This document shows, in pieces, positions 6,177 through 24,256 of a stretch of DNA of 64,000 nt. Position 1 is the first letter of the stretch. Every line of letters begins with the position of its first letter. The notes below the pieces were generated by a model. It saw nothing but the letters and a program-made list of their open reading frames with translations. It had not been told where the DNA came from and did not search any database. This DNA comes from an uncultured Cytophagia bacterium (GTDB lineage Bacteria > Zhuqueibacterota > Zhuqueibacteria > Oceanimicrobiales > CAZGRP01): contig CAZGRP010000023.1 in assembly GCA_964527995.1 (NCBI GenBank), positions 624 through 64,623 of the forward strand, given 5' to 3'. The position numbers and the translations under genes are program-made.

Positions 6177-6635
6177 TTATCGGCTGAATGCCGGCTGGCT
6201 GGTCTCACTGCTCTTGGCTCCCGCCAGGCCGTACACGGCGCCGAGCACTGCACCGTACACGAGGTGGCCCAACAGGCTGCCCATCACCACCATCACCGGG
6301 GCTGGAGTGTTACTGGCGAAGAAGCCGGCGCCCATCACGGGGTTGACCATGATTTGCGCGAGCAGCCAGGGGAACAGACCATAGAGTGCGCCGCGGAGAG
6401 CACTTGCTCCCGGCAGGCGATCCAGAAAGACGTAAACGTAAATCAGGCCGAGGGTGACGCCGATGATGAAATGGATGGTCCAGCCGAGGGCGACCGGGAT
6501 TCCCATGAAGTTCGCCAGCATGTTGCCAATCGGCATCTTCGGCATCCCCATCATGGGAGCCGTCAACAGAAGCAGGGTCATAACGGCTGTGGCAGCTAGC
6601 CCAGCCAGAATTGCGCGGCCGATGTTTTTATTCAT
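6177..6635 (-). CDS. Four-helix membrane protein (DUF6789/DUF1440-like)
   Basis: AAAGGAGG RBS, ATG 6635; hydrophobic throughout, with GWTIHFIIG, GALYGLFPW and SLLGHLVYG motifs. Confidence 0.75.
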   Translation of the reverse strand: MNKNIGRAILAGLAATAVMTLLLLTAPMMGMPKMPIGNMLANFMGIPVALGWTIHFIIGVTLGLIYVYVFLDRLPGASALRGALYGLFPWLLAQIMVNPVMGAGFFASNTPAPVMVVMGSLLGHLVYGAVLGAVYGLAGAKSSETSQPAFSR

Positions 6636-6733
6636 CGTGGCCTCCTTTGTGTGTTTTGTGAGAGCTTCTTTGTGACTGTGCTGTGTGAAACCGTTTGCGC
6701 GGTTCAAAATTAAAACAATAGCACCGTCCGCAA

Positions 6734-6757
6734 AAAGTGTCGTCCGCACGACACTTT
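6734..6757. promoter_or_regulatory. Perfect inverted repeat: CooA/Crp-type operator (TGTCG-N6-CGACA) and/or terminator of the crp-like gene
   Basis: AAAGTGTCGT-CCGC-ACGACACTTT, about 100 bp upstream of ATG 6635 and downstream of the Crp/Fnr gene stop. Confidence 0.55.
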
Positions 6758-6822
6758 GCAAGAAAACAGGAAAATAACAGGAAAAGAAGAGGAGAGGGAC
6801 CAGAACAGCGAGATGCTGGGGG

Positions 6823-7533
6823 TTAGCTTGATGCGACTGCCGGGTAACGCGGTCGTAGAATGGTGAGTTGTTTCGAAGTGAATTGGATGGTACCTTCTCT
6901 ACGCAGATCATTCAGGATGGCGGCGACCGTCTGGCGGCTTGTTCCGGTAAGGTGGGCGATCTCTTCCTGAGAGAGGAACTTCGAAACCGTAATCTTCTGA
7001 TTTCGAATCCGGCCGTAGTTTTCTGCAAATCGGAAGACGAACTCGACGACCCGGGCGCGGGCATCTTTGAAAAGCAAGTCCTCCAGCTTGGATTCGGCCT
7101 TGCGCAGTTTGAGGCCGATGAGTTTCAGCATGCGAAAATTGAGACCTGGATTCTCGCGCAGGAATTGCACGAACTCGCCTTTCTTCATCGAGCAAAGCAG
7201 CACGTCGTCGAGCGCCTGGGCGATCTCGACGTAGTCATCTTCGCCGTCGTCGACTAGGCAGAGCTCTCCGAAGAGTTCACCCGGACCGATCACATCCAGG
7301 ATGGTCTCGCGTCCCTCGACGGAGAGGCGAACGATCTTGACGTGGCCGCTTTTCAGAAAGTAGATTTTCTGGGTTTGCGATTCGGGGAAATAGATGGCCT
7401 GGCGTTTTCGTAGCCGCGTCATGACCGTGCGGTCGGCGAGCTGCTTGAGAGATTCGTCGCTCAGACCTTCAAGGATGTTGATATTGCGCAGATGCCAGAG
7501 CTTGGTCTTTTCCGCCGCCTCTCGTGTCTCCAT
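6823..7533 (-). CDS. Crp/Fnr family transcriptional regulator
   Basis: cNMP-binding fold (IYFLKSGHVKI, GPGELFGE) and C-terminal HTH LSQEEIAHLTGTSRQTVAAIL; no FNR-type Cys cluster. Confidence 0.92.
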   Translation of the reverse strand: METREAAEKTKLWHLRNINILEGLSDESLKQLADRTVMTRLRKRQAIYFPESQTQKIYFLKSGHVKIVRLSVEGRETILDVIGPGELFGELCLVDDGEDDYVEIAQALDDVLLCSMKKGEFVQFLRENPGLNFRMLKLIGLKLRKAESKLEDLLFKDARARVVEFVFRFAENYGRIRNQKITVSKFLSQEEIAHLTGTSRQTVAAILNDLRREGTIQFTSKQLTILRPRYPAVASS

Positions 7534-7827
7534 TGGCTTCCTCCAGTGGTCGCTATGCCCTCAGCTAAACTCATCGTTTCTAACAGGATCAACGCTCCTT
7601 TTATTTCCCCGTGCGGACGAGCCGGCAGCCAGAGGCAGAGATTCGGCAATCGTAGAACCAGCTCAGGCGGTGCCGGAGAGATAAAGTCGCGCGTTCCACA
7701 CAGGTTCGAGGACGGTCAAGAGGAAACCAGGGGGATCCGATGCCTCAGGCAACTGCTGCCGCAAGGACGGTAAGCAGAGCCCGCCACATGCCAGCTCGGA
7801 TCGGAGTGGGCATTTTTCGCGGCGTTC

Positions 7828-8301
7828 TTGGGGGAACAAAACAGGGGAGGACTGTTGTTGAGATGCTCAAATCAGCAAGGAATCCGACCCTCCTTATACT
7901 TTCGAATCGAGATCGTGTCTGTCAAGGTGCTCAGCTTCTTCCTGAGAATGGGCATGCTGCTGCTCATTTCTGGAGCGCAGCCAACCGCCGTGTTTGCCGC
8001 AGGCGTGGAAGGATCCTACTGCCCATGCTACGGCGGCGATCACTGTGCATGCCAGCACCCGCGGCAAGTTGAAGTATGCCCGGAGCCGTTGCCCCGCGAA
8101 GTGTCGTTCTCTTGCGCTGCCACGTTCCCGTACCAGGCGCCCTTGTCTCCTTTTGGGTCGGAACATCAAGTGCTGGTTCTGGCTCTCCCGGCAGACTCCT
8201 TGCAGGTAGATCCATCTCCTCGACCTCTTTCCGGGTCCGATCGAACACCCCTGTTTCGGGTATTTAGAGAACCCCCCGATCCGCCACCCCGACTCTGCTG
8301 A
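7828..8301 (+). CDS. Cys-rich, polyproline-ended leader-type protein (DUF2946-like architecture); true start uncertain (7828-7948)
   Basis: Hydrophobic N-terminal segment, CPCYGGDHCAC cluster and C-terminal EPPDPPPRLC. Confidence 0.55.
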   Translation: MGEQNRGGLLLRCSNQQGIRPSLYFRIEIVSVKVLSFFLRMGMLLLISGAQPTAVFAAGVEGSYCPCYGGDHCACQHPRQVEVCPEPLPREVSFSCAATFPYQAPLSPFGSEHQVLVLALPADSLQVDPSPRPLSGSDRTPLFRVFREPPDPPPRLC

Positions 8302-8311
8302 GTCCTTTTTT
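8291..8311 (+). terminator. Short hairpin plus T6 overlapping the leader stop codon (possible attenuator)
   Basis: GACTC-TGCT-GAGTC-C-TTTTTT; the leader TGA (8299-8301) lies across the loop end and the 3' arm. Confidence 0.45.
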
Positions 8312-8419
8312 CCATCTTTCTACATCTCATGCTTGAGAGCACGGCATGCGTTTGGCGTGTATGCCTCACTCGAACGAGCAGCAACTCTTGTTACACTCTC
8401 CGGGTGAGGAAGCAGCTCG

Positions 8420-8563
8420 ATGGCATGCTGCGACCCGGTGGACCCATCGGTTTGTGCCAGCCCGGTGTGCTGCGACGATGTGGCAGCCAAGGCCGGGTCT
8501 GGATCGGCCGGGTGGCGACACCAGTTGGCAGAATGGACATCCTTATTCAAATACAGACTGTAG
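8420..8563 (+). CDS. 47-aa Cys-rich small protein (metallothionein-like), below the ORF-track threshold
   Basis: GAGGA RBS, ATG 8420; MACCDPVDPSVCASPVCCDDVAAKAGSGSAGWRHQLAEWTSLFKYRL; its TAG abuts the AGGAGG RBS of the porin gene. Confidence 0.45.
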   Translation: MACCDPVDPSVCASPVCCDDVAAKAGSGSAGWRHQLAEWTSLFKYRL

Positions 8564-8578
8564 AGGAGGACTGCTCCT

Positions 8579-9706
8579 ATGAACATCACTCCAAGAGGCT
8601 GGCTCGTCCTGGGCGCCATCCTCATACTGAACTCGCCCGAAGCATGGGCGCAGGGCAGCGAGCAGGCGGTCTCTTTGGCGGACCACCCGCGTGTGCCCGA
8701 AACCCTCGACATGTCGGATGTGTATGGCAAGCTCCGGATCACCGGCTTCGGGGTGGGAGCTTTTGAGTACGCAGGGAACACGAGCCACAACTCATTCAGT
8801 GCCGACAAGATGGCTCTGAGCGCTTTTGAGCAGGTGAATGCGAGTCTCTACTTCTTTGGGCAACTGACTACGGCGCTGGAGGGGGAAGAAGCAGCAATCG
8901 AGATCGACAATCTCATTTTGAGCTACACGCCTGCCGCGCTGCCCAGCCTGACTCTCATGGGAGGCAAATTCGACGCACCGATCGGGTTCGAACGCGACGA
9001 TGAGCCGCTGAATTTCCAACCCAGCAATTCGTTCAATTTCGAATTTGCCCGGCCGGTCAAATACAGCGGGCTTCTGGCGATTTACACCTTGAGCCCTGTC
9101 TGGGACCTTACCACCTATGTGGTGAATGGCTGGGACCTCGACGTCGACAACAACAAAGCCAAGACCTTCGGCACGAGAGTCGGGTTTTCGCCTGCAGAGC
9201 TGAGCAGTCTCGGTCTCTCTTTTGTGCTCGGATTTCCGCAGGAGGACAGCAGCCGCCGGGTAAGATTGCTTGCAAACCTTGACTATACCTTTCAGCCGAC
9301 GCTGCGCTGGGTCGTGGCGGGCGAAGTGAATCTGGCGTCGGAGCAGGGTGCAGCCGGCGATGGAGGTACGGCGTGGTGGTACGGCGGGCAGCTCACGACC
9401 TACTACCAGATGAAGGGCCCATGGGCGATGGCCCTGCGATACGACGTCTTCCGCGACCGCGATGGTACACGCACGGACATAGCACAGACCTTGCAGTCGC
9501 TTAGTCTGGCACCTTCGTTCAGGCTCAAGCAGAGTCAGTACGGTGCCTACTCGACGCGCGGGCACACCATCGTCGGCATCCCGCAACTTGAGATCCGCCT
9601 GGAATTTAGACTGAATCGCTCCACTGCCAGGTTCTTCGATGATGCCGGAGGGACTTTGTCGCGTTGGGATACCCAGACCCGTCTGCAGGCAGTGGTTGTT
9701 TTTTAG
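8579..9706 (+). CDS. Outer-membrane beta-barrel porin (BBP2/DUF1597-like)
   Basis: Signal peptide (AWA-Q), GKFDAPIGFE, VVNGWD...DNNKAK, LRYDVFRD and C-terminal Phe (AVVVF). Confidence 0.8.
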   Translation: MNITPRGWLVLGAILILNSPEAWAQGSEQAVSLADHPRVPETLDMSDVYGKLRITGFGVGAFEYAGNTSHNSFSADKMALSAFEQVNASLYFFGQLTTALEGEEAAIEIDNLILSYTPAALPSLTLMGGKFDAPIGFERDDEPLNFQPSNSFNFEFARPVKYSGLLAIYTLSPVWDLTTYVVNGWDLDVDNNKAKTFGTRVGFSPAELSSLGLSFVLGFPQEDSSRRVRLLANLDYTFQPTLRWVVAGEVNLASEQGAAGDGGTAWWYGGQLTTYYQMKGPWAMALRYDVFRDRDGTRTDIAQTLQSLSLAPSFRLKQSQYGAYSTRGHTIVGIPQLEIRLEFRLNRSTARFFDDAGGTLSRWDTQTRLQAVVVF

Positions 9707-9820
9707 CAAAGGAGAGCGTCCGCCTGCCTCATTGATAGCCCTGAAGCCGACTCGGATCGATACCGGCAGGCACGCAGGAACGCGAACCAAAATGTGGTTT
9801 AAAGATAAAGGGAGGACCCA

Positions 9821-10405
9821 ATGAAAAGGTCATTGTTTCTGAACCTGTTTGTAGCAGCTGTCGTGACGGCCCTGGTGTCGTCATCGCTGGCGCACATCAC
9901 TCCAATGGTACACCTTGTCAAGCACAACGAGGCGGTCAGGAGCCTGCTTCCCGGCAGCCAGCAGTTCTTCGTCAAGACTGTAAAAGTGGGTCAAGAAGAG
10001 AGGAAGCGAATTCGTGAAGCAGCCCAATGGACGCCCGACCTGGATGCCTACAAGTTCTACTACGGGAAGGATTCCAGCGGTAGCATCGTCGGCGATGTCC
10101 TGTTGATCACCGTCAACAGCCGGCATGGCCCGTTAGCGCTGGCTGTCGGGTTCTCCACCCGGAACACAGTGACCCGCGTCATTGTCACGGACGTGGGGGT
10201 GGAGTCTGTCGCGTGGGTGCGCAAGATTTTGGCGACCGGGATCCTGGATCGTTTCGCTGGCAAGAATGAAAGGACTGTTTCAGCGGTGTTGACCGAGATC
10301 TCGAAGAGAGAAGTTGGCAGGATGCCGTACTATTTCGCCGAAATCATCACCAAAGCGGTGGCCCGGGCTGCTGTTCTACAGAGCACTCTGTTTGGCTTCA
10401 AGTAG
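9821..10405 (+). CDS. Periplasmic FMN-binding-like (RnfG/NosR fold) protein lacking the SGAT flavinylation motif
   Basis: Signal peptide (SSLA-H) and VNSRHGPLALAVGFS...VTRVIV...DRFAGK pattern resembling FMN_bind proteins. Confidence 0.5.
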   Translation: MKRSLFLNLFVAAVVTALVSSSLAHITPMVHLVKHNEAVRSLLPGSQQFFVKTVKVGQEERKRIREAAQWTPDLDAYKFYYGKDSSGSIVGDVLLITVNSRHGPLALAVGFSTRNTVTRVIVTDVGVESVAWVRKILATGILDRFAGKNERTVSAVLTEISKREVGRMPYYFAEIITKAVARAAVLQSTLFGFK

Positions 10406-10622
10406 TCCGGCGGCCGTCTACTGGGGAGCCTGCGCACCCCAGGGGTGGCTGTCTTCTTTCCATAAGTAGAGTAAGGTCGCCGCGCTTCTGCCTGCGTGCA
10501 CCGTCGGCGTCGTTTGTGGTGTGGGCTGCCCCGGCCGACCGATGAGGGTCTCCACCGACCTGTCGGGCGCCGACCGGGCACAACCGTGGCGCCTGTGATG
10601 CCTTCCGGTGGTTGGTTTCCCC

Positions 10623-10680
10623 TTGATTTTTCAGGAAACTGTTGGTATCTTAGCGCGTAGTCATTGAGACTTTGTTGCAA
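10623..10680 (+). promoter_or_regulatory. Sigma-70 promoter of fur with a downstream Fur-box-like imperfect palindrome
   Basis: TTGATT (10623)-17 bp-TATCTT (10646); TTGAGAC-TTT-GTTGCAA at 10664-10680. Confidence 0.5.
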
Positions 10681-10695
10681 CATGGCCAGGAAAAC

Positions 10696-11169
10696 ATGCA
10701 GAGTGCAGAGAAGAAGTTTCGCCGCTATTTGGCAGAGCAGAATCTGCGGTATACCGCCGAACGCCGGCAGATCTTTCATGAGATCATCCGTGCGCGCGAG
10801 CATTTCGACGCCGACACGCTGCTGCTCAAGATAAAGTCCAAAAACATGTCGGTGTCACGGGCGACGGTCTACCGCACCTTGGATCTGCTCGTGCGGTTGG
10901 GGCTGTTGCGCCGGACGTGCGTAGGCGATCGCTCAGCCGTATACGAGAGCGTTGTCGGCTGGGCGCGGCATGGACACCTCGTCTGTCAGAATTGCGGCCG
11001 TGTGGTAGAATTTCGAGCGCCCGAGATCGATGAGGCGCTGGATCGGGTCTGCGAAGAAGCCGGCTTTGACCTTCGCAATCGCTGCTTGCAGCTCTTCGGG
11101 TATTGTGCCGACTGCCGGGATCAGGCCGTGCCGGAAAGCGAGACCGATCCGACCGAAATGGTGTGCTGA
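10696..11169 (+). CDS. fur: Fur/PerR family transcriptional repressor
   Basis: LRYTAERRQI, HFDADTL, SRATVYRTL, HGHLVCQNCG and GYCADC (two CxxC zinc motifs). An alternative TTG start exists at 10672. Confidence 0.9.
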   Translation: MQSAEKKFRRYLAEQNLRYTAERRQIFHEIIRAREHFDADTLLLKIKSKNMSVSRATVYRTLDLLVRLGLLRRTCVGDRSAVYESVVGWARHGHLVCQNCGRVVEFRAPEIDEALDRVCEEAGFDLRNRCLQLFGYCADCRDQAVPESETDPTEMVC

Positions 11170-11313
11170 GTCCACGCGGAATCGCCCAGGCAGGCTCGAT
11201 TTGTCCAGCCTGCCGCGGAGTTGATCTTCCCCCGTTGGTCGAACGGCGAGCGGGGGAAGCGTTTGTTGAGACCGGAACCGAGTCCAGGGGGCCTGAATGG
11301 AAAGGAGCTGGAA

Positions 11314-12249
11314 ATGACAACCAACGATGTGCGCAAGGTGGCGATCATCGGATCCGGACCGGCCGGATATACGGCGGCTATTTACGCGGCACGGGCGAAT
11401 CTGGCACCCATCGTTTTCGCAGGGCCAGAGCCCGGAGGACAGCTCACGTTGACGACTCTGGTGGAAAACTATCCCGGCTTTTCCGACGGGGTACTGGGCC
11501 CGGAACTGATGGAGCAAATGCGCAAGCAAGCTGAAAAATTTGGCGCTAACGTGGTCTGGCGTACAGTCACACGGGTCGATTTTTCAGGTCGCCCTTTTCT
11601 CCTGGAAGCCGATGGTGAAACCCATCGAGCTGAGACTGTCATCATCGCCTCGGGGGCCTCGGCCAGGCTACTGGGGCTGGAATCAGAGCGCAAGCTTCTT
11701 GGTCGGGGCGTTTCGACGTGCGCCACCTGCGACGGCGCCTTCTTCCGCGACCAGAATCTGATCGTTGTCGGCGGCGGCGACACGGCTATGGAGGATGCCA
11801 CGTTTCTGACGAAGTTTGCCAAGAAGGTCACCGTCGTGCACCGGCGAGACCAGTTGCGAGCATCCAAGATCATGCAAGAGCGGGTATTCAAGAATCCGAA
11901 GATCGATTTTATCTGGGACACCGTCGTCCAGGACATCCGCGATCCGGAGGCCGGGAGAGTGACGGGCGTGGTGCTGAAGAATGTCAAGACCGGCGAAACT
12001 CGGGAGATGCCGATTGATGGGGTGTTTGTGGCGATCGGCCACAAGCCAAACACGGAAATCTTCCGGGGCCAGATCGATATGGATGATGTCGGCTATATCA
12101 AGACCCACGAGAGAACCATGACCAACATCGACGGCGTGTTCGCTGCTGGAGACGTGGTCGATTTTTTCTACCGCCAGGCGGTCACCGCGGCCGGAGACGG
12201 CTGTCGCGCCGGTATGGATGCGGAGAAGTGGCTGGAGGCGCATGCGTGA
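11314..12249 (+). CDS. trxB: Thioredoxin-disulfide reductase
   Basis: AAGGAG RBS; IIGSGPAGYTAAIY, CATCDG, GGGDTA and HRRD motifs. Confidence 0.97.
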   Translation: MTTNDVRKVAIIGSGPAGYTAAIYAARANLAPIVFAGPEPGGQLTLTTLVENYPGFSDGVLGPELMEQMRKQAEKFGANVVWRTVTRVDFSGRPFLLEADGETHRAETVIIASGASARLLGLESERKLLGRGVSTCATCDGAFFRDQNLIVVGGGDTAMEDATFLTKFAKKVTVVHRRDQLRASKIMQERVFKNPKIDFIWDTVVQDIRDPEAGRVTGVVLKNVKTGETREMPIDGVFVAIGHKPNTEIFRGQIDMDDVGYIKTHERTMTNIDGVFAAGDVVDFFYRQAVTAAGDGCRAGMDAEKWLEAHA

Positions 12250-14543: not shown

Positions 14544-14609
14544 AAGATTTGCGGATGGTTTAGTGCATGAGAAGTAAGAAAGTCCGTGCGGGCTTGCAAA
14601 GAAGCGACC

Positions 14610-17312
<2,703 letters not shown>

Positions 17313-19593: not shown

Positions 19594-19992
19594 ATGGAGT
19601 CGGAGAACTACCTAACCAAGTCACTGAATTCGCTTACTGCAGCCCAGATCTGCTTAGAAAACGAACTGTTCGATGATGCAGTCAATCGGGCGTACTATGC
19701 CGTCTTGAGAAGCGCCCTGGCCTTCTTGGCCAGGCTAAACTTTTCTCCGAGGACCAGGCAGATTCACCATTGGACGCAATCTGTTTTTCCGCGTGAGTGC
19801 GTCAAACGTCGAAAAGTGATGCCCCAACGTATGGCGTCGTATCTCGCTCAACTGCAGAACTTGCGGGATGCAGCGGACTACAAGCCGGAGTTCGTAAGCG
19901 AAAAAACAGCAACCCGTGCTGTTAGCAAGGCTAGCGAGTTTGTGCACATCATCCGTCAGGAGATGCGAAGTGAAGAAGGATCAGAAGATTGA
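19594..19992 (+). CDS. HEPN domain protein
   Basis: DDAVNRAYYAV and LQNLRDAADY (R-x4-Y type HEPN motif). Confidence 0.85.
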   Translation: MESENYLTKSLNSLTAAQICLENELFDDAVNRAYYAVLRSALAFLARLNFSPRTRQIHHWTQSVFPRECVKRRKVMPQRMASYLAQLQNLRDAADYKPEFVSEKTATRAVSKASEFVHIIRQEMRSEEGSED

Positions 19993-24121: not shown

Positions 24122-24256
24122 CGCCTCGCCGCGGGCTACCAGACGAAGGTTGGCGGCTGCCAGGTTGAACGACGCAGTCGTTTATTTTTTCTTGATTTTG
24201 TAGGTCGGTTTGGATATATTGGATTGTCCATTTCTGACCAAGAGGGTAGACGAAGC

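Follow-up and report, generated by a model that had tools for sequence, protein, structure and literature searches.

A candidate CutF-like sensory leader peptide with a terminal polyproline motif upstream of a BBP2 porin operon

We analyzed a 64,000-nucleotide (nt) stretch of contig CAZGRP010000023.1 from an uncultured bacterium (hereafter the window) and focused on an open reading frame (ORF) at positions 7855 to 8301 of the forward strand, which lies directly upstream of a co-oriented BBP2 porin gene and would encode a small, exported, cysteine-rich protein ending in a polyproline motif. Comparison with related loci indicates that this ORF is certainly a real gene, conserved in position and architecture. 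We consider it fairly probable that it is a translated, cis-acting sensory arrest leader peptide resembling CutF of Rhodobacter capsulatus, in which the dwell time of the ribosome on the terminal polyproline codons would control the downstream genes. Judged by its sequence features, the leader family is a sequence-orphan subfamily within the CutF-like class, an already known group of metal-sensing arrest leaders. The observations that carry this reading, taken from the loci compared, are the conservation of the leader, its synteny with the porin gene, the PPPR motif, the fixed distance between a cysteine and that motif, and the match of the C-terminus to that of CutF.

The leader gene and its conserved architecture

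The reading frame of the leader is open from 7774 to 8301 and closes with a TGA stop codon at 8299–8301. A strong Shine-Dalgarno (SD) sequence, GGGGAGGA, stands in front of two in-frame TTG codons, at 7855 and 7858, which lie 3 and 6 nt 3′ of it, so the likely product has 147–148 residues. The start proposed in the earlier note, TTG 7828, belongs to the same genuine frame but has no ribosome-binding site, and TTG 7855 or 7858 is the better choice. The features of the leader are as follows.

7855..8301, + strand: CutF-like leader ORF, 148 residues from TTG 7855, by translation
7828 (TTG, 157 residues), 7915 (GTG, 128 residues) and 7948 (ATG), + strand: other leader starts
7844..7851, + strand: Shine-Dalgarno sequence GGGGAGGA of the leader ORF, read from the sequence
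7927..8001, + strand: hydrophobic export segment VLSFFLRMGMLLLISGAQPTAVFAA, a signal peptide or N-in signal anchor, by hydropathy
8020..8052, + strand: Cys/His cluster CPCYGGDHCAC (CxC-x5-CxC), presumed metal-binding site, by sequence
8113..8115, + strand: ruler cysteine, 56 residues before the first proline of PPP, by PPP-anchored comparison
8272..8292, + strand: polyproline motif PPDPPPR, presumed site of ribosome arrest, located 3 codons from the stop, by sequence

The hydrophobic segment has a best 15-residue Kyte-Doolittle mean of 2.04, is preceded by a basic N-terminal stretch with four Lys/Arg residues, and is followed by what may be an AxA-type cleavage site (VFA/AG) as judged from hydropathy and sequence; an equivalent segment was present in 17 of 17 relatives of the leader. 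In addition to the four cysteines of the Cys/His cluster, the leader contains two more, encoded at 8077–8079 and 8113–8115. The PPDPPP sequence (8272–8289) is followed by Arg-Leu-Cys and the stop codon, giving the C-terminus FREPPDPPPRLC. When all six frames of the window were scanned, this was the sole ORF with both a hydrophobic segment and, among its final 14 residues, PPP or RAPP. All of the elements that the earlier note had described could be located, namely the ORF, its hydrophobic N-terminus, the CPC-x4-HCAC motif, PPDPPP at 8272–8289, a hairpin with a run of six T residues (T6) at 8291–8311 over the stop codon, and, downstream, a porin, which we identified as BBP2 from its PF07642 match at 8579–9706. 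Upstream of the leader, a sigma-70 scan returned no site, and operator-like inverted repeats were not found in 7534–7870. Contigs from two DNA runs of the same study, in which the source runs are microbial-mat metagenomes, revealed strain variants within the leader at 8007 (synonymous), 8131 (Y>D), and 8152 (F>L), all of which spare the Cys cluster, the ruler cysteine, the PPP motif, and the hairpin.

Sequence searches with the leader were uninformative. The ORF matched no Pfam family at E ≤ 0.1 and no NCBIfam family, ten of its relatives matched no Pfam family at E ≤ 1, and a single-sequence search of 5.8 billion proteins returned nothing. A phmmer search against 1.84 billion representatives gave one match, a 1338-residue tandem-repeat protein aligned over 22 weak stretches, which we rejected as compositional. 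A profile of the four window-type leaders defined below retrieved just the protein of one of its own members (L043), and a profile of leader ORFs retrieved eight more proteins, all of the Gemmatimonadota type and none with a Pfam domain; precomputed Pfam domains were likewise absent from all 9 database homologues.

The leader was instead recognized as a gene from its upstream position across relatives of the porin. We took porin relatives from genomes and metagenomes and read the upstream sequence at each locus, which gave about 20 loci (L001–L011, L013, and L042–L050) comprising three relatives from unclassified metagenome-assembled genomes (MAGs) or metagenome contigs and many from Gemmatimonadota. 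In every locus with upstream sequence, a same-strand ORF of 107–152 codons ends 50–290 nt before the porin start, and each of these ORFs combines a hydrophobic segment at its N-terminus with a Cys/His cluster and, 2–7 residues before the stop, PPP[RK]; the exception is the ORF of L002, which ends in NAPPVTS. The linkage was confirmed independently by a reverse look-up that began at a leader protein (P0006, locus L134) rather than at a porin and arrived at the order leader, BBP2 porin, Aq_1264_TM (PF27139), and a homologue of p194, the exported 194-residue protein of the window operon. The conservation of the ORF, which the earlier note had left to be checked, thus holds at the level of architecture at about 20 loci, and its proposal of a CruR/CutF-type leader that is exported, rich in cysteine, and equipped with a polyproline motif gains support from the conserved leader–porin pairing, PPP[RK] terminus, and Cys-to-PPP spacing in the sequences compared.

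Two subgroups can be distinguished. In the window-type subgroup, consisting of the window, L001, L042, and L043, the cysteines follow the pattern CxC-x5-CxC...C(C)...C and the protein ends in DPPPR plus 2–6 residues, the end of the L001 leader being KPPPKISPRV. Leaders of the Gemmatimonadota type have QPQxxC[GA]xHC ... CH ... [ST]PPPR[GAVT], followed by the stop. Across the leaders, the arginine after PPP is encoded by CGA, CGC, CGG, AGA, and AGG, and the third positions of the proline codons vary; because the arginine is kept through both CGN and AGR codons, selection acts at the level of the protein. The ratio of nonsynonymous to synonymous substitution rates (dN/dS) was 0.33–0.6 among the closer Gemmatimonadota leader pairs.

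A second conserved property emerged when 23 leaders were anchored at PPP and the distances to their cysteines were compared. A cysteine lies 55 or 56 residues before the first proline of PPP in 22 of the 23 leaders (56 in the window), the exception being L003, with a cysteine at 61 residues. The remaining Cys-to-PPP distances range from 68 to 140 residues, and distances between motifs in the N-terminal part differ by up to about 30 residues. The cluster cysteines of the window stand 87, 85, 79, and 77 residues from PPP, as compared with 90, 88, 82, and 80 in L001, L042, and L043. The 55-residue spacer between the ruler cysteine and PPP is rich in Pro, Ala, and Ser and has a median ungapped identity of 13% (0–11% between the window and other members); since its length is kept although its sequence has almost fully diverged, the spacer appears to act as a ruler. 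A MAFFT alignment (A2) that placed the internal DPSPR of the window leader against the DPPPR of its relatives, leaving a 26-residue tail, was rejected, as anchoring at PPP brings all of the cysteines into register.

The distance itself suggests where sensing might take place. The ribosome tunnel usually holds about 30–35 residues and the SecY channel about 15–20, and from these lengths a residue 55–56 positions from the peptidyl-transferase center would just have emerged on the periplasmic side while the ribosome stands on PPP. In the mechanism that we propose, the N-terminal hydrophobic segment would export or anchor the leader, whose Cys-rich cluster is of a metal-binding type, and when the ribosome reaches PPDPPPR, the conserved cysteine 56 residues back would be just outside the tunnel and translocon. 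Binding of a ligand, probably a thiophilic metal, or oxidation of the nascent chain would then set the dwell time on the polyproline codons. The paused ribosome would cover the stop codon together with the beginning of the 277-nt leader–porin spacer, and the pause would change expression of the BBP2 porin, of the FMN_bind-like protein p194, and possibly of a Fur-family regulator further downstream. This output could run through an intrinsic terminator, Rho-dependent termination, or the unmasking of a ribosome-binding site. We infer each of these steps (stalling, ligand sensing, action in cis, and output) from the architecture described above.

Output routes and competing explanations

The features between the end of the leader and the start of the porin are as follows.

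8291..8311, + strand: terminator-like hairpin GACTC-TGCT-GAGTC followed by C-T6, enclosing the TGA at 8299–8301, by folding
8302..8578, + strand: leader–porin spacer, 277 nt, with a pyrimidine-rich, G-poor tract at about 8302–8335, by sequence and composition
8420..8563, + strand: 47-codon Cys-rich ORF (MACCDPVDPSVCASPVCCDD...) in the spacer, with its own SD at 8403–8412
8564..8578, + strand: local hairpin AGGAG-GACUG-CUCCU sequestering the porin SD, by folding

The hairpin over the leader stop has the form of a Rho-independent terminator, that is, a stem-loop followed by a U-tract, and is a weak one for its class. Its stem-loop (8291–8304) consists of five base pairs, three of them G-C, closed by a 4-nt loop, with a folding energy of −6.7 kcal/mol, in keeping with the reservation of the earlier note about a weak 5-bp stem, and the T6 run occupies 8306–8311. 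According to the scheme of that note, 8291–8311 is the terminator through which the system works: a ribosome on PPDPPP would mask the 5′ arm of the hairpin and permit readthrough, and a ligand on the Cys motif would free the pause and restore termination. Several observations speak for such a switch. The stem is canonical and runs into C-T6, none of 200 local shuffles folded as well, and the chance of such a hairpin falling exactly on the leader stop is roughly 1 in 100; it is also the sole terminator-like site between leader and porin in the window. Given known ribosome footprint sizes, a ribosome with the second proline codon of PPP (8284–8286) in its P site would cover the RNA to about 8296–8299, corresponding to the 5′ arm and loop, and a polymerase pausing at the T-tract would stand about 25–30 nt further along, which is the spacing in coupled ribosome–polymerase structures. 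Convincing hairpin and T-run sites also follow other genes of the window, such as those near 24185 and 19906.

The last of these are stronger than the leader hairpin (24150–24195, + strand, −13.5 kcal/mol; 19880–19906, − strand, −10.1 kcal/mol, both with T6) and resemble ordinary Rho-independent terminators, so the host organism probably uses intrinsic termination.

On the other side, the stem is short, the terminator-like pattern occurs about twice as often as in shuffled sequence (7 occurrences in 4 kb, as compared with 3.5 ± 2), and several of the 14 T6 runs in the 64 kb lie inside genes. When the regions between leader end and porin start were scanned with the same criteria, a terminator-like site was found in 0 of 16 related loci, and the three nearest, L001, L042, and L043, contain nothing comparable. 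The hairpin is hence not the conserved output of the family, and the check on its position in homologous leaders that the earlier note had advised goes against placing it at the core of the mechanism. We regard the terminator scheme as unlikely, and from the loci compared, a terminator switch is a possibility specific to this genome and not a feature of the family.

A combined version of these proposals would have a CutF-type polyproline stall rewired, in this lineage, to a Rho-independent terminator built around the leader's own stop codon. Whether RNA polymerase terminates at 8306–8311 would then be decided directly by where on PPDPPP the ribosome stands, and the 55–56-residue ruler would mark a sensor whose state is read out on the periplasmic face of the translocon. 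We think this quite unlikely; if true, it would provide the first example of intrinsic, pyrBI-like attenuation driven by an arrest peptide that senses a metal or redox state, with the operon of porin, Aq_1264_TM, and FMN_bind-like protein serving as an uncharacterised system for uptake or redox chemistry.

Two other output routes were considered for the family. In L004, L005, and L006, the leader stop is immediately followed by a pyrimidine-rich anti-SD sequence whose pairing with the porin SD is better than that of 96–99% of control segments (p 0.01–0.04), and in L010, the pairing is borderline (p 0.07). An example of this arrangement is TGA-TCTCCCTCC against the porin SD GGAAGGGAGA; the regions concerned are 2800–2890 in L004, 3810–3890 in L005, and 3682–3842 in L006. 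The other route is suggested by composition. The ratio of C to G is about 1.2–1.7 in the 3′ parts of the leaders as compared with about 0.9 in the porin gene, C exceeds G over the 80 nt that follow the stop in most loci including the window (C/G = 1.22), and the spacers of window-type loci measure 200–290 nt. This C-over-G composition and the long spacers are suggestive of Rho-dependent termination as in the CruR model. A search of 6500–11500 against Rfam matched no family at E ≤ 1.

The porin SD of the window is itself drawn into a small hairpin (−7.0 kcal/mol, z −1.7), which alone is not significant. Neither L001 nor any other relative contains a counterpart of the 47-codon ORF, which could be spurious or confined to this lineage. 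Its stop codon adjoins the hairpin of the porin SD (8564–8578), and its translation, if it occurs, would be coupled to porin initiation.

A different explanation for the leader, which we hold doubtful, is that it acts in trans as a small exported or inner-membrane protein that binds metal or has a redox function through its cysteines, with a C-terminal arm spanning the periplasm so that PPPR docks onto the porin or its partners. The strict co-occurrence with the porin, Aq_1264_TM, and p194 genes would fit such a protein, as would a C-terminal arm of fixed length that is rich in Pro, Ala, and Ser; a similar role was considered for CutF in the 2021 paper, and the hairpin with T6 could merely end a monocistronic leader transcript. 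However, the same C-terminal motif acts in cis in CutF, through stalling that depends on PPP and elongation factor P (EF-P), and CutF is degraded after export. A partner acting in trans would, moreover, need neither PPP[RK] within 2–7 codons of the stop nor a gene immediately upstream of and co-oriented with the porin, and a nearly unconstrained spacer (13% identity) is unusual for a docking arm. That the ORF is instead a chance frame lying in a long intergenic or 5′ untranslated stretch, its motifs being coincidental, would accord with the lack of a Pfam or NCBIfam match and of a homologue in the two large protein searches and with a G+C content at third codon positions (GC3) below that of neighboring genes, but it is very improbable and is effectively refuted by the comparative data, as the frame, architecture, PPPR, and 55–56-residue spacing are kept at about 20 loci spread over two or more distant lineages, the arginine is retained through both codon families, the ORF is the only one of its kind in six frames of 64 kb, and a strong SD precedes an in-frame start.

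Several points weigh against an arrest leader of the CutF type. GC3 of the ORF is 0.59–0.61, as compared with 0.68–0.77 in the neighboring genes, and the locus was found in none of three small metatranscriptome runs of the same study. The ruler cysteine of the window lies without the neighboring histidine found in most relatives. Pairing between the post-stop region and the porin SD is unremarkable in the window (p 0.20), the SD being 265 nt away, and the 277-nt spacer is long and interrupted by the non-conserved 47-codon ORF. The downstream gene content points to no particular metal or regulatory logic. The window ORF and 10 relatives had no detectable similarity to Pfam DUF2946 (PF11162), the family of CruR, and the likeness to CutF was drawn from its published residues and description. 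A scan for cutF with back-translated PEPEGPPPRL gave 0 matches when a stop codon was included and 28 without it, none of which was a small ORF ending in the motif; most of the 28 lay inside unrelated proteins of 300–630 residues or in spurious frames.

The downstream operon

The genes downstream of the leader, and the counterparts of two of them in related loci, are as follows.

8579..9706, + strand: BBP2 (OmpL-like) β-barrel porin, the first gene that would be regulated, by PF07642 (E 5.8e-31)
9821..10405, + strand: exported 194-residue protein (p194) with a predicted NqrC/RnfG-like FMN_bind fold, second gene of the operon, by AlphaFold2 and Foldseek
10672..11169, + strand: Fur-family regulator downstream of p194, by PF01475 (E 3.5e-27)
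p194 homologues in the same operon position: L001 5653–6249, L042 2549–3148, L002 5613–6251, L134 3121–3711
Aq_1264_TM genes between porin and p194 homologue: L001 5114–5648, L042 2017–2559, L008 5141–5722, L134 2519–3070

The conserved module begins with the leader and continues with the BBP2 porin, a membrane protein of four helices, and, in fourth place, an exported protein about 195 residues long. This order is kept in most loci for which downstream sequence was read; L008, L010, and L011 showed no homologue of the exported protein immediately behind the membrane protein. Precomputed matches assigned the four-helix protein, which carries HxxDxxLLIQDxHxH, to Aq_1264_TM (PF27139). Its gene is absent from the 64 kb of the window, where the porin and p194 genes are 115 nt apart. 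The p194 protein matched no Pfam family, and its AlphaFold2 model, with a predicted local distance difference test (pLDDT) score of 83, had NqrC and RnfG as best Foldseek matches, pointing to an FMN_bind-like fold. Homologues of p194 share an invariant HITP that coincides with the predicted mature N-terminus, and the N-terminal histidine could be a metal ligand. The Fur-family gene scores below all NCBIfam equivalog cut-offs. A role of the operon in redox chemistry or metal uptake is plausible, as we infer from this gene content.

Elsewhere in the window, a 908-residue radical-SAM-like protein (14586–17312, + strand) has its nearest relatives in MAGs labelled KSB1 or Calditrichaceae (62–73% identity), suggesting an origin of the window in this part of the FCB group.

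Comparison with known leaders and attenuators

CutF, encoded by the first gene of cutFOG in Rhodobacter capsulatus, has 118 residues with a Sec signal peptide, a C69xxH72C73 motif, and the C-terminus P109EPEGPPPRL118 (PMC8456105, PMC9973294, bioRxiv 10.1101/2025.02.05.636593). Its PPP causes an EF-P-sensitive stall that is enhanced by Cu, and the stalled ribosome melts a stem-loop masking the SD of cutO; CutF works in cis alone and, once exported, undergoes degradation (Ozturk et al. 2021, 2023, 2025). A protein-interaction role for its proline-rich end had been considered in 2021 (PMC8456105). CutF-like proteins are recognized by published rules, namely a length below 150 residues, PP among the final 15 residues, a signal peptide, a downstream gene in the same orientation no more than 1000 nt away, and a Cys/His site (PMC9973294, PMC8456105), and are defined as having no Pfam match (Ozturk et al.).

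The window leader fits these rules in its length, C-terminus, downstream gene, and Cys/His site, and has a putative signal peptide, judged by hydropathy alone. Its length is 148 residues from TTG 7855 or 128 from GTG 7915, and would be 157 only from the unsupported TTG 7828; it ends in ...REPPDPPPRLC, in which PPPRL is identical to P114–L118 of CutF; the co-oriented BBP2 porin follows 277 nt downstream on the + strand; and the sequence contains CPCYGGDHCAC and two more cysteines. The hydrophobic segment was assessed by hydropathy, which does not distinguish an anchor from a cleaved signal peptide.

The resemblance to CutF extends to several details. The endings EPPDPPPRLC in the window and PEPESPPPRG in L008 resemble PEPEGPPPRL of CutF, and each protein is small (118 residues in CutF, about 148 in the window), carries a Cys/His motif, and has near its N-terminus a hydrophobic segment of the Sec type. 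In both, a few codons separate PPP from the stop, and the gene stands directly upstream of and co-oriented with the gene that is, or would be, regulated. The CxxHC of CutF is identical in form to that of the Gemmatimonadota leaders, whereas the window has CxC-x5-CxC rather than CxxxC, and the distance from Cys to PPP is 41–45 residues in CutF as compared with 55–56 in the window leader family. CutF regulates a multicopper oxidase, whereas the window leader heads a BBP2 porin operon. In cutFOG, an SD-shielding stem-loop lies within reach of the PPP-stalled ribosome; the anti-SD arrangement of cutF–cutO is shared by L004, L005, and L006 and is not significant in the window, which has a terminator-like hairpin on the stop codon. 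The host of CutF is a proteobacterium, and that of the window is apparently related to KSB1 or Calditrichota.

CruR (Bp2923) of Bordetella pertussis, the prototype of DUF2946 (PF11162), has a CXXC motif and a RAPP motif 45 residues apart (Roy et al. 2022, PMC9426467). This spacing is kept within 1–2 residues in more than 2000 proteins, and an insertion of 5 residues abolishes regulation; CruR acts through Rho-dependent termination with an EF-P-independent stall and a 162-nt intergenic region (PMC9426467). As in CruR, the window leader is an exported Cys-containing ORF before an outer-membrane gene (a TonB-dependent transporter there, a porin here), its proline motif stands 3 residues before the C-terminus, and a fixed distance between Cys and arrest motif is common to the family. 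The CruR intergenic region with its controlled transcription termination is long, and so is the window spacer (277 nt). The motifs themselves differ, with CxC pairs and PPPR in the window and CxxHC and PPPR[GAV] in the relatives instead of CXXC and RAPP, and the spacing of the leaders, likewise conserved, is 55–56 and not 45. The PPP of the window leader is the EF-P-dependent type of CutF, whereas RAPP is EF-P-independent. The suggestion of a new variant motif set is therefore apt with respect to the CXXC/RAPP of CruR but not for the arrest motif, as PPPRL is CutF's own.

ApcA, ApdA, ApdP, and the Streptomyces RAPP/RGPP arrest peptides are EF-P-resistant and mostly monitor protein localisation rather than a ligand (PMC10951233, PMC12992588). 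Like the window leader, they are small secreted or membrane proteins with a C-terminal proline motif, located upstream of regulated genes; the window leader lacks R-A/G-P-P.

In the pyrBI-type attenuators of Escherichia coli, a leader ORF runs through a Rho-independent terminator hairpin, and a closely following ribosome blocks formation of the hairpin. The pyrBI leader senses uridine triphosphate (UTP) through polymerase pausing and has neither an arrest peptide nor an exported sensor domain. The window leader also runs through a terminator-like hairpin, but this hairpin is weak and non-conserved.

Published surveys place leaders of the CutF/CruR type mainly in Pseudomonadota, Bacteroidota, and Actinomycetota, beside recognisable copper genes, and the main text of PMC9973294 mentions neither porins nor Gemmatimonadota. 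CutF and CruR set the precedent that a metal sensed on a nascent exported peptide can control genes. To this precedent, the locus described here would add a sequence-orphan leader subfamily in Gemmatimonadota and in the lineage of the window genome; a distinct and strictly kept ruler of 55–56 residues, which predicts where the sensing cysteine sits at the ribosome pause; and a new regulated module of BBP2 porin, four-helix membrane protein, and FMN_bind-like protein with a conserved N-terminal histidine. Leaders of this kind escape profile and homology searches, and it is the combination of position, motif, and spacing that reveals them.

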